Below are positions 2,792-37,148 of a stretch of 64,000 nucleotides of DNA, piece after piece. Within the stretch, counting starts at the first letter, position 1, and every line of letters begins with the position of its first letter. Both the position numbers and the translations under genes were made by a program. The stretch comes from a virus. A model generated the notes under the pieces. It made no database searches, was not told where the DNA came from, and was given only the letters and a program-made list of their open reading frames with translations. Where the stretch lies: positions 36,002 through 100,001 of IMG/VR virus record IMGVR_UViG_3300032331_002067. One strand, 5' to 3'.

Positions 2792-3160
2792 ATGTTCAGT
2801 ATGGATGACTTTGACAATATACAAAAACCTAGTGAAAGAAAGGAGGCTCCAGATTATATAATAGAAGACCCGGATTTTCTAAATCAGATGATGACAGTTG
2901 CTCGAATAATTAGAGAAACTGATTTTGATGACCACGAAAGTCGTGCATCTTTCATTATGCATATGATTAATATGTCGATAGATGATCCTAATAATGTTCA
3001 CGAGAAATCGTTAGATGTTGTTAGTGCATTATCATCTCATATTTGTATGATGATGATGGCTATTAATGGTGGAAAAGAAACATATTTATCAAGTTATGAT
3101 AATTCTGTTATTCAACCAATGATAGATGATGGTCCACATATTCCAATCTGGGATAATTAA
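2792..3160 (+). CDS. hypothetical protein
   Basis: 122-aa ORF. Confidence 0.6.
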   Translation: MFSMDDFDNIQKPSERKEAPDYIIEDPDFLNQMMTVARIIRETDFDDHESRASFIMHMINMSIDDPNNVHEKSLDVVSALSSHICMMMMAINGGKETYLSSYDNSVIQPMIDDGPHIPIWDN

Positions 3161-3161
3161 A

Positions 3162-3518
3162 ATGTCAACAATTACAATTAATTGGTTAGATGAAGCTGCT
3201 TGTTTAGGTCAAGGAACAGATTTGTTTTATACAGACACTGTTTATACATCAGAAACAAAGAAGATTATTGCCAAAGCTAAAACATTTTGTAATAGTTGTC
3301 CGGTAGTTGCTGATTGCTTACAATATGCAATTAATAATGAAGAAAGGTTTGGGGTTTGGGGTTCTTTTTCATCAAAAGAAAGAGCATCAATCCGAAACCA
3401 TTTGAAAACCAATGACATTACAAAAGATCAAGCAAAGGCAATGGTTAATAAAACAGTATTGCAAGTAAAAGAAACATTCAAAAATACAATATTTGTGGAG
3501 GGTGATAATGCCCGATGA
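3162..3518 (+). CDS. whiB: WhiB family Fe-S transcription factor
   Basis: W..EAAC...LFY...AK.FCxxCPV..DCL.YA...ERFGVWG: four Cys plus the GVWG turn. Confidence 0.92.
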   Translation: MSTITINWLDEAACLGQGTDLFYTDTVYTSETKKIIAKAKTFCNSCPVVADCLQYAINNEERFGVWGSFSSKERASIRNHLKTNDITKDQAKAMVNKTVLQVKETFKNTIFVEGDNAR

Positions 3519-21969: not shown

Positions 21970-22208
21970 TCTAGGGAATAAACAAACCCCTACCCTGCGG
22001 GCGTAAAGCGAAGCTGAAGCTTAGCACGCCCGCCTATTGACTCCCCAAACAGAGGAAAACGAAAAACAAAAAAATAACGCAGTAGCATGCTACGGATATA
22101 TACTCAAATTTTCTAAAAAACGGGGTCGGCTGCAAGTGCCGGGTTTTGGTTTAGAAAACGGGGGAGATGGGGGGTTGAGTGCGTATTGCTCCCAGAGCTG
22201 AGCTGCTG

Positions 22209-22281
22209 CTCCCAGAGTAGGGCTTGAACCTACGACACACGGATTAACAGTCCGTTGCTCTGCCAACTGAGCTATCTGGGA
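22209..22281 (-). tRNA. tRNA-Asn(GUU)
   Basis: TCCCAGA/TCTGGGA acceptor stem; ACGGA-CTGTTAA-TCCGT anticodon arm; GGTTCAAGCCC T-arm. Confidence 0.93.
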
Positions 22282-22321: not shown

Positions 22322-23092
22322 TCAATTTGTATTCACTTCTACATTTATCTCTAGAATCTTATTGGAGGAATGTTGAGCTACATTATCTTGTCCTATGTTA
22401 GTGATCTCGTATCCGAGAGACTCAATGTAGGAGAATAGATCTTGTCTCCGGGGCTGGAACCATTCCTTGTTTGCCCACGCTTCAAAGAGAATAGGTGGGA
22501 ACCCATTTCGCTCAATAGTATTTTTTGCGCCCACGAGAACAGCGAGTTCCAAGCCTTCTACATCGATTTTGATGAGCTTGATATCGTTCATCTCAAGTGA
22601 GTCCAATTTTAAGACAGAAATCAATTCCGTGTTACCACTGGAGGTACACTCATAACCGTTCTCACGCACCTCGTGATCAAGGCTAAAGGCTCCTACATTC
22701 AATTCTGTGGAATAGTCCGGCAACTGAATATAAAACGAATCTGGCTCGTATGACAAACCGAAGTTTTTGGCGAATACATTGTCACACCTGTTGAGTAAGA
22801 TATTTGAACAAAGCTGGTAAAACACGATTCTTTGCGGTTCAAAGGCATGGAACTCAAACTGTGGATACTTCTTTGCTAACGGCACACAAAAGCTTCCTAC
22901 ATTGGCTCCGATGTCCAAGACCAAACCCTGCTCACCAATCCTGAGATAGTGATCCAAGAACATTCCTGAGAATGTGAGAATGTGTGGCTCATGCCCAACT
23001 TTATTCTTTAAGGCATCTGAGATGAGATCATCTTTATCAAACAAGAAAAAGCGACAATCCCCTCCGTCATATATTGAAGATGATGGAATCAT
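22322..23092 (-). CDS. FkbM family SAM-dependent methyltransferase
   Basis: LDIGANVG, AFEP and LIKIDVEGLE motifs. Confidence 0.9.
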   Translation of the reverse strand: MIPSSSIYDGGDCRFFLFDKDDLISDALKNKVGHEPHILTFSGMFLDHYLRIGEQGLVLDIGANVGSFCVPLAKKYPQFEFHAFEPQRIVFYQLCSNILLNRCDNVFAKNFGLSYEPDSFYIQLPDYSTELNVGAFSLDHEVRENGYECTSSGNTELISVLKLDSLEMNDIKLIKIDVEGLELAVLVGAKNTIERNGFPPILFEAWANKEWFQPRRQDLFSYIESLGYEITNIGQDNVAQHSSNKILEINVEVNTN

Positions 23093-23104: not shown

Positions 23105-23323
23105 CTATTCATTATCTCTATTATACCAATGAGACTCACGATATCTCTGCATGGCGTTGATATTTGAGACTGTTTGTGCAACCTGTCGATGCCGGCGATT
23201 CCGTGACCACAAGCTATTCTGAAACCACGAGGAAACAGCCACATACCCGGCATAACCCACACACAATATTGCAAACCACCTTGCAATCACTACATAGTAT
23301 CTTTCGGGTGCCACCTTGGTCAT
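23105..23323 (-). CDS. small membrane protein
   Basis: coupled ORF with GGAGG RBS and one hydrophobic segment. Confidence 0.55.
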   Translation of the reverse strand: MTKVAPERYYVVIARWFAILCVGYAGYVAVSSWFQNSLWSRNRRHRQVAQTVSNINAMQRYRESHWYNRDNE

Positions 23324-23883
23324 GCCATTCCTCCATCGGGAAGGAAGTTTATGTTTATTGCGAATCTAAAAGGACTCAATACGGGATTGCTTCCCGCATG
23401 AAGGATGTCTCCATCAAACACAACCGCCGTTCCTTTTTTGGGATATACTTCTTTTACAACATTGAGGTCGTCATCATAGAAGTATGTAGGACCGTCTGAG
23501 TCGTTCACATAGTACAGACAGACAAGATGTGGAACCAAACTGCCATCCTCTAGTTTTAAATCAGTGTGTGGTGTCTGAGGACTACACCGGGATGGGTTTG
23601 GCATCGTGACATTTACCTTTGCTCGATACAACCGGATGTCTCCATGCTTATCCTGAATAGCATTGATTATTGGCAATACAACAGGAAGATTCGGAGACTG
23701 TTTTTCTTCCCCCATCATAAAGAGATGATTGGTTAGTTGTTTACCGGAAGAGGATGAGCTGCCAGTTTCTAATGGATCGTTATGAATATTTTGAAAACGG
23801 TAAGGGAATGCGTTGCTAGAGACAAACTCTTCAATTAGGTTCTGATCCTTAACTGGTATGAAGTTTTCAAAAATATCTATCAT
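23320..23883 (-). CDS. 2OG-Fe(II) oxygenase
   Basis: PHTD...LYYVNDSDGPT...FDG..LHA...R..ININF. Confidence 0.85.
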   Translation of the reverse strand: MIDIFENFIPVKDQNLIEEFVSSNAFPYRFQNIHNDPLETGSSSSSGKQLTNHLFMMGEEKQSPNLPVVLPIINAIQDKHGDIRLYRAKVNVTMPNPSRCSPQTPHTDLKLEDGSLVPHLVCLYYVNDSDGPTYFYDDDLNVVKEVYPKKGTAVVFDGDILHAGSNPVLSPFRFAININFLPDGGMA

Positions 23884-24128
23884 TAGTAACGCTGATTCCG
23901 CTCAAGCCTAGATATCTCACATTCTTGATTAATGATGGTGGACATCATTCCTTCAACCTTCTCCTTTAGCTTTAAATTTTCTTCTTCAAACATGGCGCAC
24001 CTATCAATCCACCATTTAATTGTCACTCTGTCCATTTGGGGATCACTTTCCACTCTTGACTCTTCTTTTCTGAAGAAGGTCAAAGTCTTTAATTTTTGTT
24101 TCCCCCATGTACTCCCAAGCAAAGCCAT
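23883..24128 (-). CDS. small coiled-coil protein (start uncertain)
   Basis: coupled to the next ORF. Confidence 0.45.
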   Translation of the reverse strand: MALLGSTWGKQKLKTLTFFRKEESRVESDPQMDRVTIKWWIDRCAMFEEENLKLKEKVEGMMSTIINQECEISRLERNQRY

Positions 24129-24450
24129 CTTTGATCAATTGTTCATTAACAGAAGTCGGTTGGTCATCAATAAAGATCCATCCAAGAATTCTTCCGTACT
24201 TTTCAGTGGAGTCGGGTTTCTCTGTTCTAATGACAATCTTTGTTGCAGCCTTTAGAATTTCATCTAGTCTCTTCTTTACCTCAAGACCAAGAACTTTTTC
24301 GTTCTTATCCGTTGTTCTAGATTCTGGTGTGTCAATACCGGCAAGTCTAACCCGCTGGTAATAAGAAATATTGAACCCAAGATCAATATCTACATCAATG
24401 GTGTCACCATCAACTACTTTGTATAATTTTTTTACGACATATTCGTACAT
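24043..24450 (-). CDS. thermonuclease (SNase-like) nuclease
   Basis: VVDGDTID...RVRLAGIDTPE...KYGRILG...G.A..Y. Confidence 0.9.
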   Translation of the reverse strand: MYEYVVKKLYKVVDGDTIDVDIDLGFNISYYQRVRLAGIDTPESRTTDKNEKVLGLEVKKRLDEILKAATKIVIRTEKPDSTEKYGRILGWIFIDDQPTSVNEQLIKDGFAWEYMGETKIKDFDLLQKRRVKSGK

Positions 24451-25700: not shown

Positions 25701-25805
25701 AAAAACCCCGGCTATTTACTTTCGTAGGGATAGTTCCGGGGCTTTCGTTGTACTATAACGGTCCCAAGGTAGCCTGCACTTGCGCAACAGACACAAAGGG
25801 TGTCA
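25701..25805 (-). ncRNA. candidate small RNA antisense to 23S rRNA H69-H70
   Basis: TG-TATAAT at 25811-25818; 5' hairpin GACAC/GTGTC; 22-nt complement of the 23S H69/70 region; terminator GCCCCGG/CCGGGGT followed by T4. Confidence 0.65.
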
Positions 25806-25818
25806 TATACATTATACA

Positions 25819-25992
25819 CTATCGACTGTTTTTGTAAAATCCACTGCCCTTTAATTGCATCAAAGGGGCTGAATAGACTTGTTTTAATTCCCCATTGCAG
25901 TATTCACAATGCGTCTTCTTCTGTTCTTCTTTTATTGAACGAATCTCTGTATAGAGATGATCATTCTCACACTTATAATCGTAAATTGCCAT
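25819..25992 (-). CDS. FmdB family zinc-ribbon protein
   Basis: MAIYDYKC...H...CEYC...LKGSGFY. Confidence 0.85.
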   Translation of the reverse strand: MAIYDYKCENDHLYTEIRSIKEEQKKTHCEYCNGELKQVYSAPLMQLKGSGFYKNSR

Positions 25993-25993
25993 G

Positions 25994-26806
25994 TTATCTA
26001 AATTTTGGGTTAGGATGATTTGGTTCCGGATAGATTGGACCCTTATAAGTATAGCTTCCGCTAGAAATATTTGCTCCACGAGAGTCGTAAACAGTATAAT
26101 TTGTTACGATTGGTCCATTTGATGTGGTGATAGGAATCTTATTATGTCTATTGATTGGTGATTCATCAATTGAATAGAAGAAATTACCATCCGTTAAGGC
26201 TTTTGGCATAAAGTCGTCATTATTAGACATGGGAAATAGAAAAGTTCCATTTATCCACTTAATTGCGATAATCGAATAACCAATAATATCCAGTAGTGTA
26301 TCCTGTAGGGATTCATTTGATGGATTTGAATCTTTTTTAATCAAATTTTCAAGACGAGCTACCTTGTCATGAATTCTAATCACCAAGCCATTAAGACCAA
26401 ACTTCGCAATATTTTCAGAGCCATAGTCTCTTTGTTTTCTTGTAACAGTAAGGAGAGTCCAATCTCTGTATTCGTTCAAATCTAAATCTTTATCTATTTG
26501 TTTTAATGACAAAAATGAAAGAACAGAAAGAATACACCAATAGTTTACAATAGCCGATGCTACTTCAAAGTCATTTGTTTTGTCATGATTCCAAACTTTT
26601 ACTGTGATCATATAATCAACAATAGTCCTCATATTCTCAACAAAATCATTCCCAAGAACCTTGTTACACAAAGTAACATCTCTTGTAATATCTGCAAATA
26701 GTTCCTCATTTTCAGAAATGAATTCGAATAGCTCTTTAACAGTAAATGAAGCTGCTTCTTCCCAAGATTCTGAAAGTTTTGCTGAGAGTAGCTTAGAGAG
26801 TACCAT
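25994..26806 (-). CDS. nucleotide-modification-associated domain 1 (DUF1599-like) protein
   Basis: RKQRDYG..NI...GL.IR..DK.ARL.NL...ES..DT..D..GY. Confidence 0.75.
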   Translation of the reverse strand: MVLSKLLSAKLSESWEEAASFTVKELFEFISENEELFADITRDVTLCNKVLGNDFVENMRTIVDYMITVKVWNHDKTNDFEVASAIVNYWCILSVLSFLSLKQIDKDLDLNEYRDWTLLTVTRKQRDYGSENIAKFGLNGLVIRIHDKVARLENLIKKDSNPSNESLQDTLLDIIGYSIIAIKWINGTFLFPMSNNDDFMPKALTDGNFFYSIDESPINRHNKIPITTSNGPIVTNYTVYDSRGANISSGSYTYKGPIYPEPNHPNPKFR

Positions 26807-27284: not shown

Positions 27285-27890
27285 TTATCTTTGTTGAACA
27301 AAAGTCTGGAATGGAGCACCTGTGTATGGATCAAATTTAGATGCTACAGAGAGAGCTTTGTTGATAGCAGTCTTGGCTTTGGCTAGAGGGAGTTCCTTGC
27401 CATTGCTAAGGGCGTGCAGAGCGCCTAGGGCGTAGGATGAGCCACTGCCAATGGCGTAGATACCGGCTTTATCTGAAGTCCAAGAGTAGTCTCCATCAAT
27501 AATATAGATCGTTCCGTTAATAACGACAACTATTTGTGATGAATGTTCAGCGATATGATCTTTCGCATCATTGTCAGGCATGGCATATCCGGTACTCTCA
27601 AAGCATTCACGCAAGGATGGAACAAATTTTTGAGTTATGAACTGATCAAGTTTTGGACCAGATGTTACAAAACTTGGAACTGGGGGAATAAAGGCGTGGT
27701 GCAATATGTTGATAGCTCTTACATCGCCAGCAGCTCCGAGAAGGTATCTGCCATTTTGAGCAACTTTGCTACTACCTGTCCCTAGAGTTGTTATCTGATA
27801 AGCCATTCCTGATTCATCAAAAGATGAAACTCTGGAGTCAGTACAGATAACTGCATAATCATCGCCTTGAATTCCTACAATTGTTGTCAT
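27285..27890 (-). CDS. proteasome beta-subunit/HslV-like threonine peptidase
   Basis: N-terminal MTTIVG; DSR, K and AIGSGSSYALG motifs; DPYTG. Confidence 0.85.
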   Translation of the reverse strand: MTTIVGIQGDDYAVICTDSRVSSFDESGMAYQITTLGTGSSKVAQNGRYLLGAAGDVRAINILHHAFIPPVPSFVTSGPKLDQFITQKFVPSLRECFESTGYAMPDNDAKDHIAEHSSQIVVVINGTIYIIDGDYSWTSDKAGIYAIGSGSSYALGALHALSNGKELPLAKAKTAINKALSVASKFDPYTGAPFQTFVQQR

Positions 27891-27991
27891 TTCTGCCTTT
27901 AGATACTGATGGGGCACCCCAAGATATCAGGTCTAATCTTTCGAAATAGTACCCGCCAAAGAGTGCCCCAAACTTAGTATAGCGTAGTTTG

Positions 27992-35517: not shown

Positions 35518-37148
35518 TGGATAACAAAATGGTTCTGTCACAGGATGATGATGACTTCAGCGAAGAAATTGACGACCTTTCTTATATTTCAGCTTTAGCT
35601 AAAGTCGATGCAGTTGACCCTTTTTCTGAAGTAAAGATTTCAAGTCTTTCTCCAAAAATGAAAAGAAAAGCTCAGCGTCTTCAAAAAAGACATGAGGGAG
35701 AAGACGGAACAAAGTCTAAGTATCTTGATCCAGAAGTTGTTAACGGTTATTCACTATGGGATATTGTTAATCCGCCATATGATTTAGATAGTCTTGCAAT
35801 CCTATACGACCAGAGTTCAATTCACTATGCAGCTATTAATGCAAGAGTAATGAATACCGTTGGTCTTGGTTTTGAATTTGATGAAACTCTTAAATCAAGA
35901 AGGCGTATTGAAAAAGTACAGGGTGAGCCATTAAAACTTGAAAAGACTCGTAAAAGCTTACAAGATCTTAGGGAAGAGCTTGAAGTTCTTTTTGAAAGTT
36001 TCAATGTTGAAGAAACATTGATTGAGACAATGGTTCGTGTTTGGCAAGATTGTCTTACAGTCGGTAATGGTTATTTAGAAATTGGTCGCAATAATGAGGG
36101 CAAGGTCGGTTATATCGGTCATATCCCTGCAACGATGGTTCGTGTAAGAAGGCGTAGAGATGGCTTTGTGCAACTCTCAAGGGCTAACAAGATCCAAGCT
36201 ATTTTCTTTAGAAACTTTCAAGACCTAGAGATGGAAGATCCCGTTAATGGCGATCCAAAGCCAAATGAAATTATTCATTTCAAGATGTATTCTCCAAACA
36301 GCACTTACTACGGTATTCCTGCAGCAGTTTCTGCAGCAGCAGCAATCATTGGGGATAAATTTGCAAAAGAATATAATATTGATTATTTTGAAAATAAGGC
36401 TATTCCTCGTTATGCAATTATCCTTAAAGGTGCAAAACTAAGCAATAAGTCAAAAGCTGAACTTGTTAATTACTTCCGCAATGAAGTTAAAGGTAGAAAC
36501 CACGGAACACTTGTTATCCCTCTTCCTGCCAGTATTGGTTCTGATTCAGATATCCGATTTGAGAAACTTGAAGCTGGAGTTCAGGATGCTTCATTTGATA
36601 AGTATCGTAAATCTAACCGTGATGAAATCCTCGTAGCCAACAGAGTTCCTGCACCAAAAGTTGGTGTTTATGATAATGCAAACCTTGCTGTATCACGAGA
36701 TGCGGATAAGACATTTAAGATGCAAGTAATTGGTCCAGACCAAGCAATTATTGAAAAGAAGATCAACAGACTTCTTGCTGAGTTCACAGACCTCCTTCAG
36801 TTCAAGCTTAAGAAGATTGACTTGCTTGATGAAGATATGGAATCAAGAATTTATGACCGTTACCTCAGAACTGAAGTTATCAGTCCTAATGAGGTTAGAG
36901 GTAAGATTGGATTCCCAGAACGGAAGGATGGCGATGATGTCCTTCCTTTCCCAACAAAGATCAAACAAGAGAACGCAGGAGCACCAGTTGGAAATTCCAA
37001 CAATGCTTCCTCTAATCCACCAAAATCTAGATCAGACAGTGGAGCAACACCAAGTGGGGTTCAGGGTTCCGGAGATCAAAAAGAAAGAGGTCAGGCACAA
37101 GACTCGGGTGATAATACAACCGCTAATACTGACCAAGGAGGAAACTAA
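35517..37148 (+). CDS. portal protein
   Basis: GNGYLEIGR, EIIHFK.YSP..TYYGIP, YFENKAIP and ISPNEVR motifs; position before the protease. Confidence 0.9.
   Translation: MDNKMVLSQDDDDFSEEIDDLSYISALAKVDAVDPFSEVKISSLSPKMKRKAQRLQKRHEGEDGTKSKYLDPEVVNGYSLWDIVNPPYDLDSLAILYDQSSIHYAAINARVMNTVGLGFEFDETLKSRRRIEKVQGEPLKLEKTRKSLQDLREELEVLFESFNVEETLIETMVRVWQDCLTVGNGYLEIGRNNEGKVGYIGHIPATMVRVRRRRDGFVQLSRANKIQAIFFRNFQDLEMEDPVNGDPKPNEIIHFKMYSPNSTYYGIPAAVSAAAAIIGDKFAKEYNIDYFENKAIPRYAIILKGAKLSNKSKAELVNYFRNEVKGRNHGTLVIPLPASIGSDSDIRFEKLEAGVQDASFDKYRKSNRDEILVANRVPAPKVGVYDNANLAVSRDADKTFKMQVIGPDQAIIEKKINRLLAEFTDLLQFKLKKIDLLDEDMESRIYDRYLRTEVISPNEVRGKIGFPERKDGDDVLPFPTKIKQENAGAPVGNSNNASSNPPKSRSDSGATPSGVQGSGDQKERGQAQDSGDNTTANTDQGGN

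Follow-up and report, generated by a model that had tools for sequence, protein, structure and literature searches.

A small RNA of a tailed freshwater phage, predicted to be transcribed from the minus strand and complementary in its core to domain IV of the 23S rRNA, is described here. The DNA analysed (the window) is a stretch of 64,000 nucleotides that corresponds to positions 36,002 to 100,001 of IMG/VR record IMGVR_UViG_3300032331_002067. Sequence comparison makes it very likely that the RNA gene is real, and the RNA would probably pair with the large-subunit rRNA of the host. Of the mechanisms considered, a trans-acting minus-strand phage small RNA antisense to 23S domain IV is the best supported, and it is the one towards which we lean slightly.

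The plus strand of the window reads ACTATAACGGTCCCAAGGTAGC at 25752–25773, and CTGCAC follows directly at 25774–25779. The first block is identical to 23S rRNA positions 1913–1934 at 21 of 22 nucleotides and the second corresponds to 23S 1962–1967, the two being joined without a gap, so that the match with its directly adjoining second block is as the original prediction had described it. C25773 can be used by either block and the second block is therefore 6–7 nt long. The E. coli-type 23S sequence, checked in E. coli, Arthrobacter and a Bdellovibrionota MAG, is ACTATAACGGTCCTAAGGTAGC at 1913–1934 and CCTGCAC at 1961–1967. When the window was searched with the E. coli-type pattern allowing up to three mismatches, 25752–25773 was the sole site (one mismatch) and no site arose in any of 100 dinucleotide-preserving shuffles; no other site in the whole 100-kb phage record matches the rRNA operons compared as well as this one. 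Together, the shuffles and the whole-record comparison rule out chance as the origin of this match. The Rfam bacterial LSU model falls on the strand reading ACTATAACGG..., which identifies the plus strand as the rRNA sense strand, and RNA made from the minus strand is therefore antisense to 23S. In such an RNA the single difference places a G opposite U1926 and gives the G·U pair that had been anticipated. Duplexes predicted between the RNA and E. coli-type 23S range from -39 to -70 kcal/mol. Two further candidates were set aside: a search of the window for a second anti-rRNA RNA, by way of the complement of the 16S 3′ tail, gave one distant match at chance level, and a 17-nt match to 23S at G000 1685–1701 lies within a 361-aa ORF and is likewise at chance level.

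The element occupies a 130-nt gap between two minus-strand genes, a Zn-ribbon ORF (25819–25992) and a cytochrome P450 gene (24462–25688), and its features are compiled in Table 1. On the minus strand, TTTACA, a 16-nt spacer and TATAAT (25838–25811) together agree with the promoter consensus at 11 of 12 positions and form the best promoter-like site of the region. A TG-TATAAT promoter had been proposed, of which the TATAAT stands; the TG immediately abuts it, so this is not a canonical extended -10 element (TGnTATAAT). The proposed terminator beginning with GCCCCGG is recovered as a strong hairpin followed by UUUUU at 25746–25701. Promoter and terminator delimit a short non-coding unit, as the class of trans-encoded small RNAs requires, as far as can be read from sequence only. 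With a promoter and an intrinsic terminator of its own, and with homologues in related phages, the minus strand does carry the stand-alone unit that was originally claimed.

Table 1. Features of the predicted small RNA gene, its neighbours and the host markers (window coordinates unless another record is named).
Feature	Position	Strand	Remarks
-35 hexamer TTTACA	25833..25838	-	within the 3′ end of the upstream Zn-ribbon ORF; -35-like hexamer equally spaced in all homologues
-10 hexamer TATAAT	25811..25816	-	conserved in 18/18 homologous loci
Predicted small RNA, ~100–106 nt	25701..25806	-	5′ end placed at ~25804 ± 3; 3′ end in the U-run 25701–25705
5′ arm (AUGACACCCUUUGUGUCUGU)	25787..25806	-	masks part of the anti-23S arm by pairing (predicted)
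UUGCGCAA, apical GCAA-capped part of the 5′ domain	25780..25787	-	invariant in the alignment; 7/8 pairing possible with 23S 1971–1978 (UGGCGUAA)
Anti-23S segment	25752..25779	-	complement of 1913–1934 (one G·U, opposite U1926) joined to complement of 1961/2–1967
Single-stranded linker ACCGUUAUAGUACAAC	25747..25762	-	predicted; holds the complement of the H69 loop (AACUAUA); unpaired probability ~0.9 in all variants
Intrinsic terminator	25701..25746	-	long hairpin (GCCCCGG...CCGGGG) with GAAA-capped tip, then UUUUU; structure kept and sequence replaced in v2 and v3
FmdB-like Zn-ribbon ORF, 57 aa	25819..25992	-	upstream; syntenic with the RNA in 18/18 homologous loci
Cytochrome P450 gene	24462..25688	-	downstream; not a conserved neighbour
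WhiB-family gene 1	3126–3518	+	host marker
WhiB-family gene 2	G000:C1:11391-11573		host marker

The genes around the element deserve a brief description. The P450 is full-length (Pfam 3.4e-33), lies in a tailed phage and has no redox partner gene that we could see in its neighbourhood. It is followed by genes for an SNase-like nuclease (24043–24450), a 2OG-Fe(II) oxygenase (23320–23883) and a methyltransferase (22322–23092). The nuclease had been pointed to as a possible partner of the RNA; the gene is there, and a link to it is not supported, the downstream genes differing among homologues. Upstream of the Zn-ribbon ORF, also on the minus strand at 25994–26806 and 27285–27917, are genes for a DUF1599 protein ('nucleotide modification associated domain 1') and an HslV/proteasome-like peptidase.

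Exact-pattern scans of IMG/VR returned 18 loci with the element, which fall into three variants: v1, the window-like form; v2, in which the match to 23S is lengthened to GCCGTAACTATAACGGTCCCAAGGTAGC, corresponding to 1907–1934 (28 nt); and v3, which reads GGCGTAACTATAACGATCCTCAAGGTAGC. In the alignment a 43-nt core is invariant across the 18 loci except for two changes in v3, and around it changes are found in the promoter flanks, the 5′ loop, the linker and the entire terminator sequence. All variants keep the upstream Zn-ribbon ORF, the -35-like hexamer, the TATAAT and a terminator, the terminators of v1, v2 and v3 having very different sequences and the same hairpin and U-run structure. The downstream neighbour is the P450 gene in the window, a tRNA-Asn or tRNA-Thr gene some 40–75 nt downstream of the RNA in L002, L004, L013, L011 and L014, and other ORFs elsewhere. 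A 17-codon ORF that overlaps the RNA is not conserved, its start being ACG in all four v3 loci and its frame being shifted by a 2-nt deletion in L011 and L014, and conservation accordingly follows the anti-23S core and not the ORF. On the points by which the original prediction could have been overturned, the outcome thus favours an RNA gene, since homologues are present and the core is kept where the ORF is lost. The element was absent from the 185,579 species genomes scanned, where no prophage copies were found either, and a search of the window and related loci against Rfam 15 (gathering score and E-value threshold) gave only tRNAs and no family match. As a separate observation, the genes for anti-H69 RNAs usually lie from ~40–75 nt to 2.5 kb from same-strand phage tRNA genes (Asn, Thr, Leu, Ile), as in L002, L004, L013, L011/L014, L034 and L035; in the window a tRNA-Asn gene (22208–22281) is found 3.4 kb downstream of the RNA, with the P450, SNase, oxygenase and methyltransferase genes in between.

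The minus-strand RNA has a predicted folding energy of -34.8 kcal/mol (z = -2.8), and the minimum-energy structure and the pair probabilities agree in every variant. In the predicted fold the partners of the 5′ arm are GCAGGC.AC and the GGG of the antisense arm, and a GCAA loop closes the tip, after which the 5′ domain is followed by a single-stranded linker containing (C)CGUUAUAGU(U)AC and then by the terminator. By this prediction, some half of the antisense arm is engaged in pairs within the RNA itself. The complement of the loop of 23S helix 69 (H69) is predicted to be unpaired in every variant and in every scaffold described below, the seed GUUAUAGU that represents it having an unpaired probability of ~0.9 throughout. 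This arrangement differs from the one first proposed, in which the antisense segment was held in a loop closed by GTTGCGC/GTACAAC: that stem can be drawn, is not predicted and cannot form in v2 and v3. The accompanying 5′ hairpin GACAC/GUGUC is similarly a drawable alternative pairing of the same bases and is not the predicted fold. There is modest support for the model in which the 5′ arm masks part of the anti-23S arm. When 5′ arms were swapped between variants, the native 5′ arm and core were predicted to pair 0.9–4 kcal/mol more stably than the swapped combinations, and in v3, where an A is inserted into the antisense arm, the 5′ arm has CCUC to match it instead of CCC, and UCGU is available as a partner for ACGA. 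The larger part of the stem does not vary and is for this reason silent for or against the masked fold.

The same core also occurs in phages in which the rest of the RNA is different. What is common to all scaffolds is a stretch of 19 nt complementary to 23S 1912–1930, always on the gene strand and located either upstream of a terminator or in a 3′ UTR. In L032, L034 and L035 the element has a TGnTAGAAT promoter, a closing stem around a UCCCAA/UUGGGA hairpin and unpaired CCGUUAUAGUUAC, and lies near a tRNA cluster, and in L036 the core sits in the loop of a CCUUGGG/CCCAAG hairpin. The phages of L034 and L036 have a capsid protein 80–81% identical to that of the window and also carry WhiB, and by these comparisons they are sister phages whose RNA scaffold was exchanged as a whole with the core retained. 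In L038–L040 the core follows a ribonucleotide reductase gene, within its 3′ UTR and ahead of a strong terminator, and has an A instead of a G opposite U1926; the L038 contig, which is only ~16% complete, gave no capsid match to the window phage. In cultured T5-like phages of Vibrio (PWH3a-P1, qdvp001 and relatives) the core is found 20 nt after a small Cys-rich ORF. These phages have no detectable capsid similarity to the window phage either, and they clearly represent an unrelated lineage. At L025 1499–1523 (Vibrio phage PWH3a-P1, NC_020863.1 ~80880–80906) and in L033, GCCATAACTATAACGGTCCCAAGGC is read on the non-gene strand after a 48-aa Cys-rich ORF, and the gene-strand RNA of both would be a predicted anti-H69 hairpin. 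The idea of a common Zn-ribbon protein partner was dropped on the grounds that the small Cys-rich ORF upstream of the element in the window does not, by eye, resemble that of the Vibrio phage.

Most departures from the perfect complement are of a kind that gives G·U pairs in the antisense RNA and A·C or G·A mismatches on the sense strand. Such wobble-tolerable changes comprise the G opposite U1926, which is present in four of the five scaffolds, a U facing G1922 in v3 and another facing G1910 in the Vibrio phages; in addition, C17 has become U in the stem of the RNA itself in L004 and L008. Two kinds of exception, a C·C mismatch at C1908 (v3, L034) and insertions of one base (v3, L035, L038), mean that the pairing would not be perfect everywhere. 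Among 185,579 species genomes scanned, a 23S rRNA with C at 1926 was found only in one odd Bdellovibrionota MAG; adaptation to a host variant thus does not explain the G in the RNA.

Since the core complements an rRNA hairpin that is universal and exposed at the surface, stays constant in unrelated scaffolds and in phages of unrelated hosts, and no other stretch of the 100-kb phage record has more than 12 nt of complementarity to it, pairing with 23S in trans is the simplest reading of these data. We consider it unlikely, yet worth weighing seriously, that the RNA is instead a real small RNA, or a part of the transcript of the upstream gene, with some other job, for instance as a protein-binding RNA or as an mRNA regulator acting by way of the GUUAUAGU seed, and that its rRNA complementarity is a relic of captured rDNA. 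Part of the antisense arm does serve the RNA's own fold, internal GGG/CCC stems of several scaffolds gain stability from having G rather than A opposite U1926, and in two groups the motif lies within a 3′ UTR, all of which would fit such a role. A relic, on the other hand, would not be expected to stay invariant in the unrelated scaffolds of Vibrio and actinobacterial phages while its surroundings change, a protein-binding site gives no reason for an exact complement of a universal rRNA stretch, and the phage offers no alternative target longer than the 12 nt mentioned above.

The order of promoter, structured RNA and terminator directly upstream of the P450 start would also be that of a cis-acting leader, attenuator or riboswitch, and this we regard as improbable: the downstream gene may be a P450, tRNA-Asn, tRNA-Thr or other ORF, and because of this variability the RNA is not a leader of the P450 gene. 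Moreover, there is no Rfam riboswitch match, the terminator is strong and no anti-terminator pairing was noticed on viewing the predicted folds.

At the DNA level, the 22-mer overlaps what we take to be the I-CeuI recognition site, presumably with a T to C change within its central four bases, so that it might be a target, or an immune target variant, of a homing endonuclease of the I-CeuI/I-PpoI type or of a recombinase. This is more doubtful still. In four groups the ORFs next to the element were scanned with Pfam and PHROGs and none had a LAGLIDADG, HNH or GIY-YIG domain, the Vibrio record annotates no endonuclease nearby, and the homing-site idea was dropped when no endonuclease gene was found in the vicinity. 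No group I intron was detected, the orientation relative to transcription is constant, the flanks are promoter, hairpin and terminator units, and the substitutions are wobble-compatible on one strand only.

The direction of the substitutions bears equally on the suggestion that a plus-strand transcript acts as a sense H69 decoy for a factor that recognises H69, which we think very improbable. The sense strand of v2 retains the entire H69 hairpin sequence, and in L036 a TATAAT lies just upstream of the motif on the sense strand. The change in the Vibrio phages, however, is A·C on the sense strand and G·U on the antisense strand, the sense-strand H69 stem is broken by G·A in v3 and by a register shift in v1, and the predicted plus-strand fold (z = -1.1) is no better than those of shuffled sequences. 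The plus strand has neither a promoter nor a terminator that is conserved, and every neighbouring gene is encoded by the minus strand. Finally, the chance that the element serves to encode the 17-residue peptide MTPFVSVAQVQATLGPL is negligible: an ATG does follow the -10 box and the 17-codon frame is open in v1 and L002, but no ribosome-binding site precedes it and the start codon or frame is lost in the v3, L011 and L014 loci.

The favoured reading, antisense pairing with host 23S, raises the question of which H69 the RNA would meet. The portal and capsid proteins of the phage are 42–51% identical to those of ~130-kb Streptomyces phages, and WhiB is also present in the sister contigs G002, G003, G005 and G006; the two WhiB-family genes (Table 1) and the Streptomyces-phage-like portal and capsid indicate that the host is an actinobacterium. 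Homologue searches with the phage ribonucleotide reductase and WhiB proteins returned only phage-like contigs. In Arthrobacter 23S, H69 reads GGTGGT...ACCATC, and the same type is found in 28 of 30 metagenome rRNA operons with the AcI-852 16S target that extend as far as H69. We take the AcI-852 probe sequence used here to be the correct one, and the 'acI' label of these operons is presumably best treated as a lead. The actinobacterial H69 sequence AACCATCC that the original prediction had given is thus correct in Arthrobacter and in 28 acI-like operons. Against an ACCATC-type H69, that of the abundant acI group, the window RNA has two extra central mismatches, and the predicted duplexes are still strong.

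A host lineage with AACGGTCC had also been proposed. The other two of the 30 operons, L108 (Ga0114978_10020968) and L092 (OGVU01000413.1), both from freshwater, have an E. coli-type H69 (GGCCGT...ACGGTC) together with a ~97-nt insertion in domain III, which we take to be typical of actinobacterial 23S. The insertion is present in acI and Arthrobacter and absent from Paenibacillus and the Bdellovibrionota MAG, and it is the reason for assigning these metagenome operons to actinobacteria. Their 16S identity to the acI type is 86.5% for L108 and 78% for L092, of which the latter may be chimeric or insertion-bearing. Actinobacterial operons of the proposed type therefore exist, and it is possible that one such lineage is the host of this phage. 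Every copy of the RNA is of the ACGGTC type (ACGATC in v3), those of WhiB-carrying phages included, and freshwater actinobacterial operons comprise both H69 types. A search of IMG/VR for anti-H69 RNAs that would match ACCATC, with patterns for cores not followed by GGTAGC, yielded no such RNA. The ACCATC-type matches that were returned, in a number close to chance expectation, lie in a sense-strand promoter and 5′ UTR (L124, L125) or in coding sequence (L126–L128) and were rejected. At L124 7685–7703 and L125 12743–12761, GCTATACTATAACCATCCTAAGG, shared by these two viral contigs on the sense strand, covers a promoter (TTGACT-17-TATACT in L124) and the first part of the 5′ UTR, and its likeness to actinobacterial H69 is probably due to chance.

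H69 forms intersubunit bridge B2a and contacts tRNAs, release factors and the recycling factor. In the mechanism that we favour, the RNA would be transcribed from its own sigma-70-type promoter from about 25806 to 25701 and end at the intrinsic terminator. Its invariant core is antisense to domain IV in three colinear blocks, 1913–1934, 1962–1967 and, more weakly, 1971–1978, the first of which covers the H69 loop, the H69 3′ strand and the H69–H70 linker. The exposed GUUAUAGU linker may nucleate on the H69 loop of the free 50S subunit or of nascent, immature 23S, and pairing could then extend into the arm that is otherwise masked by the RNA's own 5′ end, so that the rRNA element forming bridge B2a would be occupied. 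Interference with subunit joining or with late 50S maturation would be the most likely consequence, which is speculative. In the mature ribosome H69 is folded and modified, the m3-pseudouridine at E. coli position 1915 is unable to form a Watson-Crick pair, and ribosomes may outnumber the RNA. Extended pairing needs H69, H70 and the 3′ strand of H67 to be open, and nascent or immature 23S or the free 50S subunit is favoured as the target for this reason. Targeting H69 with a synthetic PNA inhibits the growth of E. coli (Kulik et al. 2017, as cited in PMC7038079), which shows the site to be reachable, sensitive and essential. The phage RNA shares its target helix with the PNA described there and differs in being a natural, structured and partly self-masked RNA rather than an artificial short oligomer. 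In the full-text literature that was searched, no phage or bacterial RNA antisense to H69, nor any other regulatory RNA of these groups directed at rRNA, is described; the PNA work comes nearest.

Among known systems, the closest in organisation are the trans-encoded base-pairing small RNAs. Those of the RybB and OmrA/B type, and DicF and StxS of phages and prophages, have their own promoter, a single-stranded seed and an intrinsic terminator. The predicted RNA resembles them in its size, in the unit running from promoter to terminator, in the conserved unpaired seed beside the terminator hairpin and in the existence of 3′-UTR versions of the core in other phages. It differs from them in that its only plausible target here is rRNA and not mRNA, and in a complementarity of 22–29 nt compared to 7–12 nt. 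The plasmid pairs CopA/CopT and RNA I/RNA II involve loop-presenting antisense RNAs that are cis-encoded against a transcript of their own replicon. As in those, an antisense copy of the target hairpin would present a complementary loop, and a loop-loop kiss followed by extension is possible; here, in contrast, the RNA is phage-encoded and complementary to a helix of the host rRNA.

The predicted pairing of a small RNA with a functional centre of the rRNA also recalls snoRNAs and the archaeal C/D and H/ACA guides. We know of no C/D or H/ACA guides in bacteria or phages. By eye, neither C box (RUGAUGA) and D box (CUGA) nor H/ACA boxes are seen in the window copy, and no partner enzyme is linked to the element. 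Group I introns offer a different comparison, as the P1/P10 internal guide sequence of LSU introns at 1923–1931 is likewise a contiguous antisense of ligated exons with a G opposite U, and the I-CeuI and I-PpoI target sites fall in the same rRNA hot spot. The phage RNA is distinct from group I introns in being only ~100 nt long, with no catalytic core (P3–P9) and no Intron_gpI match in the window or related loci, and from P1/P10 in its far longer pairing, in the A instead of G in one family (L038–L040) and in the lack of an endonuclease gene nearby. The idea of a group I guide sequence was rejected on account of the missing ribozyme core and of the A opposite U1926 in that family.

Taken at its broadest, the distribution of the core suggests that tailed phages of very different hosts, freshwater actinobacteria and Vibrio, may independently keep a small RNA that grips H69 and that could hold the 50S subunit off the 30S or block late 50S maturation during takeover of the cell, a proposal to which we give somewhat less than an even chance. 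Because the cultured Vibrio phages of the PWH3a-P1 and qdvp001 group share the core, the hypothesis is directly testable in a tractable system. If true, this natural RNA would be without known precedent in targeting bacterial rRNA through antisense pairing, and the matched H69 type would be a possible handle for assigning hosts to uncultured phages. It would also reveal a new route by which phages act on host translation, and would validate H69 as an antisense drug target chosen by nature.
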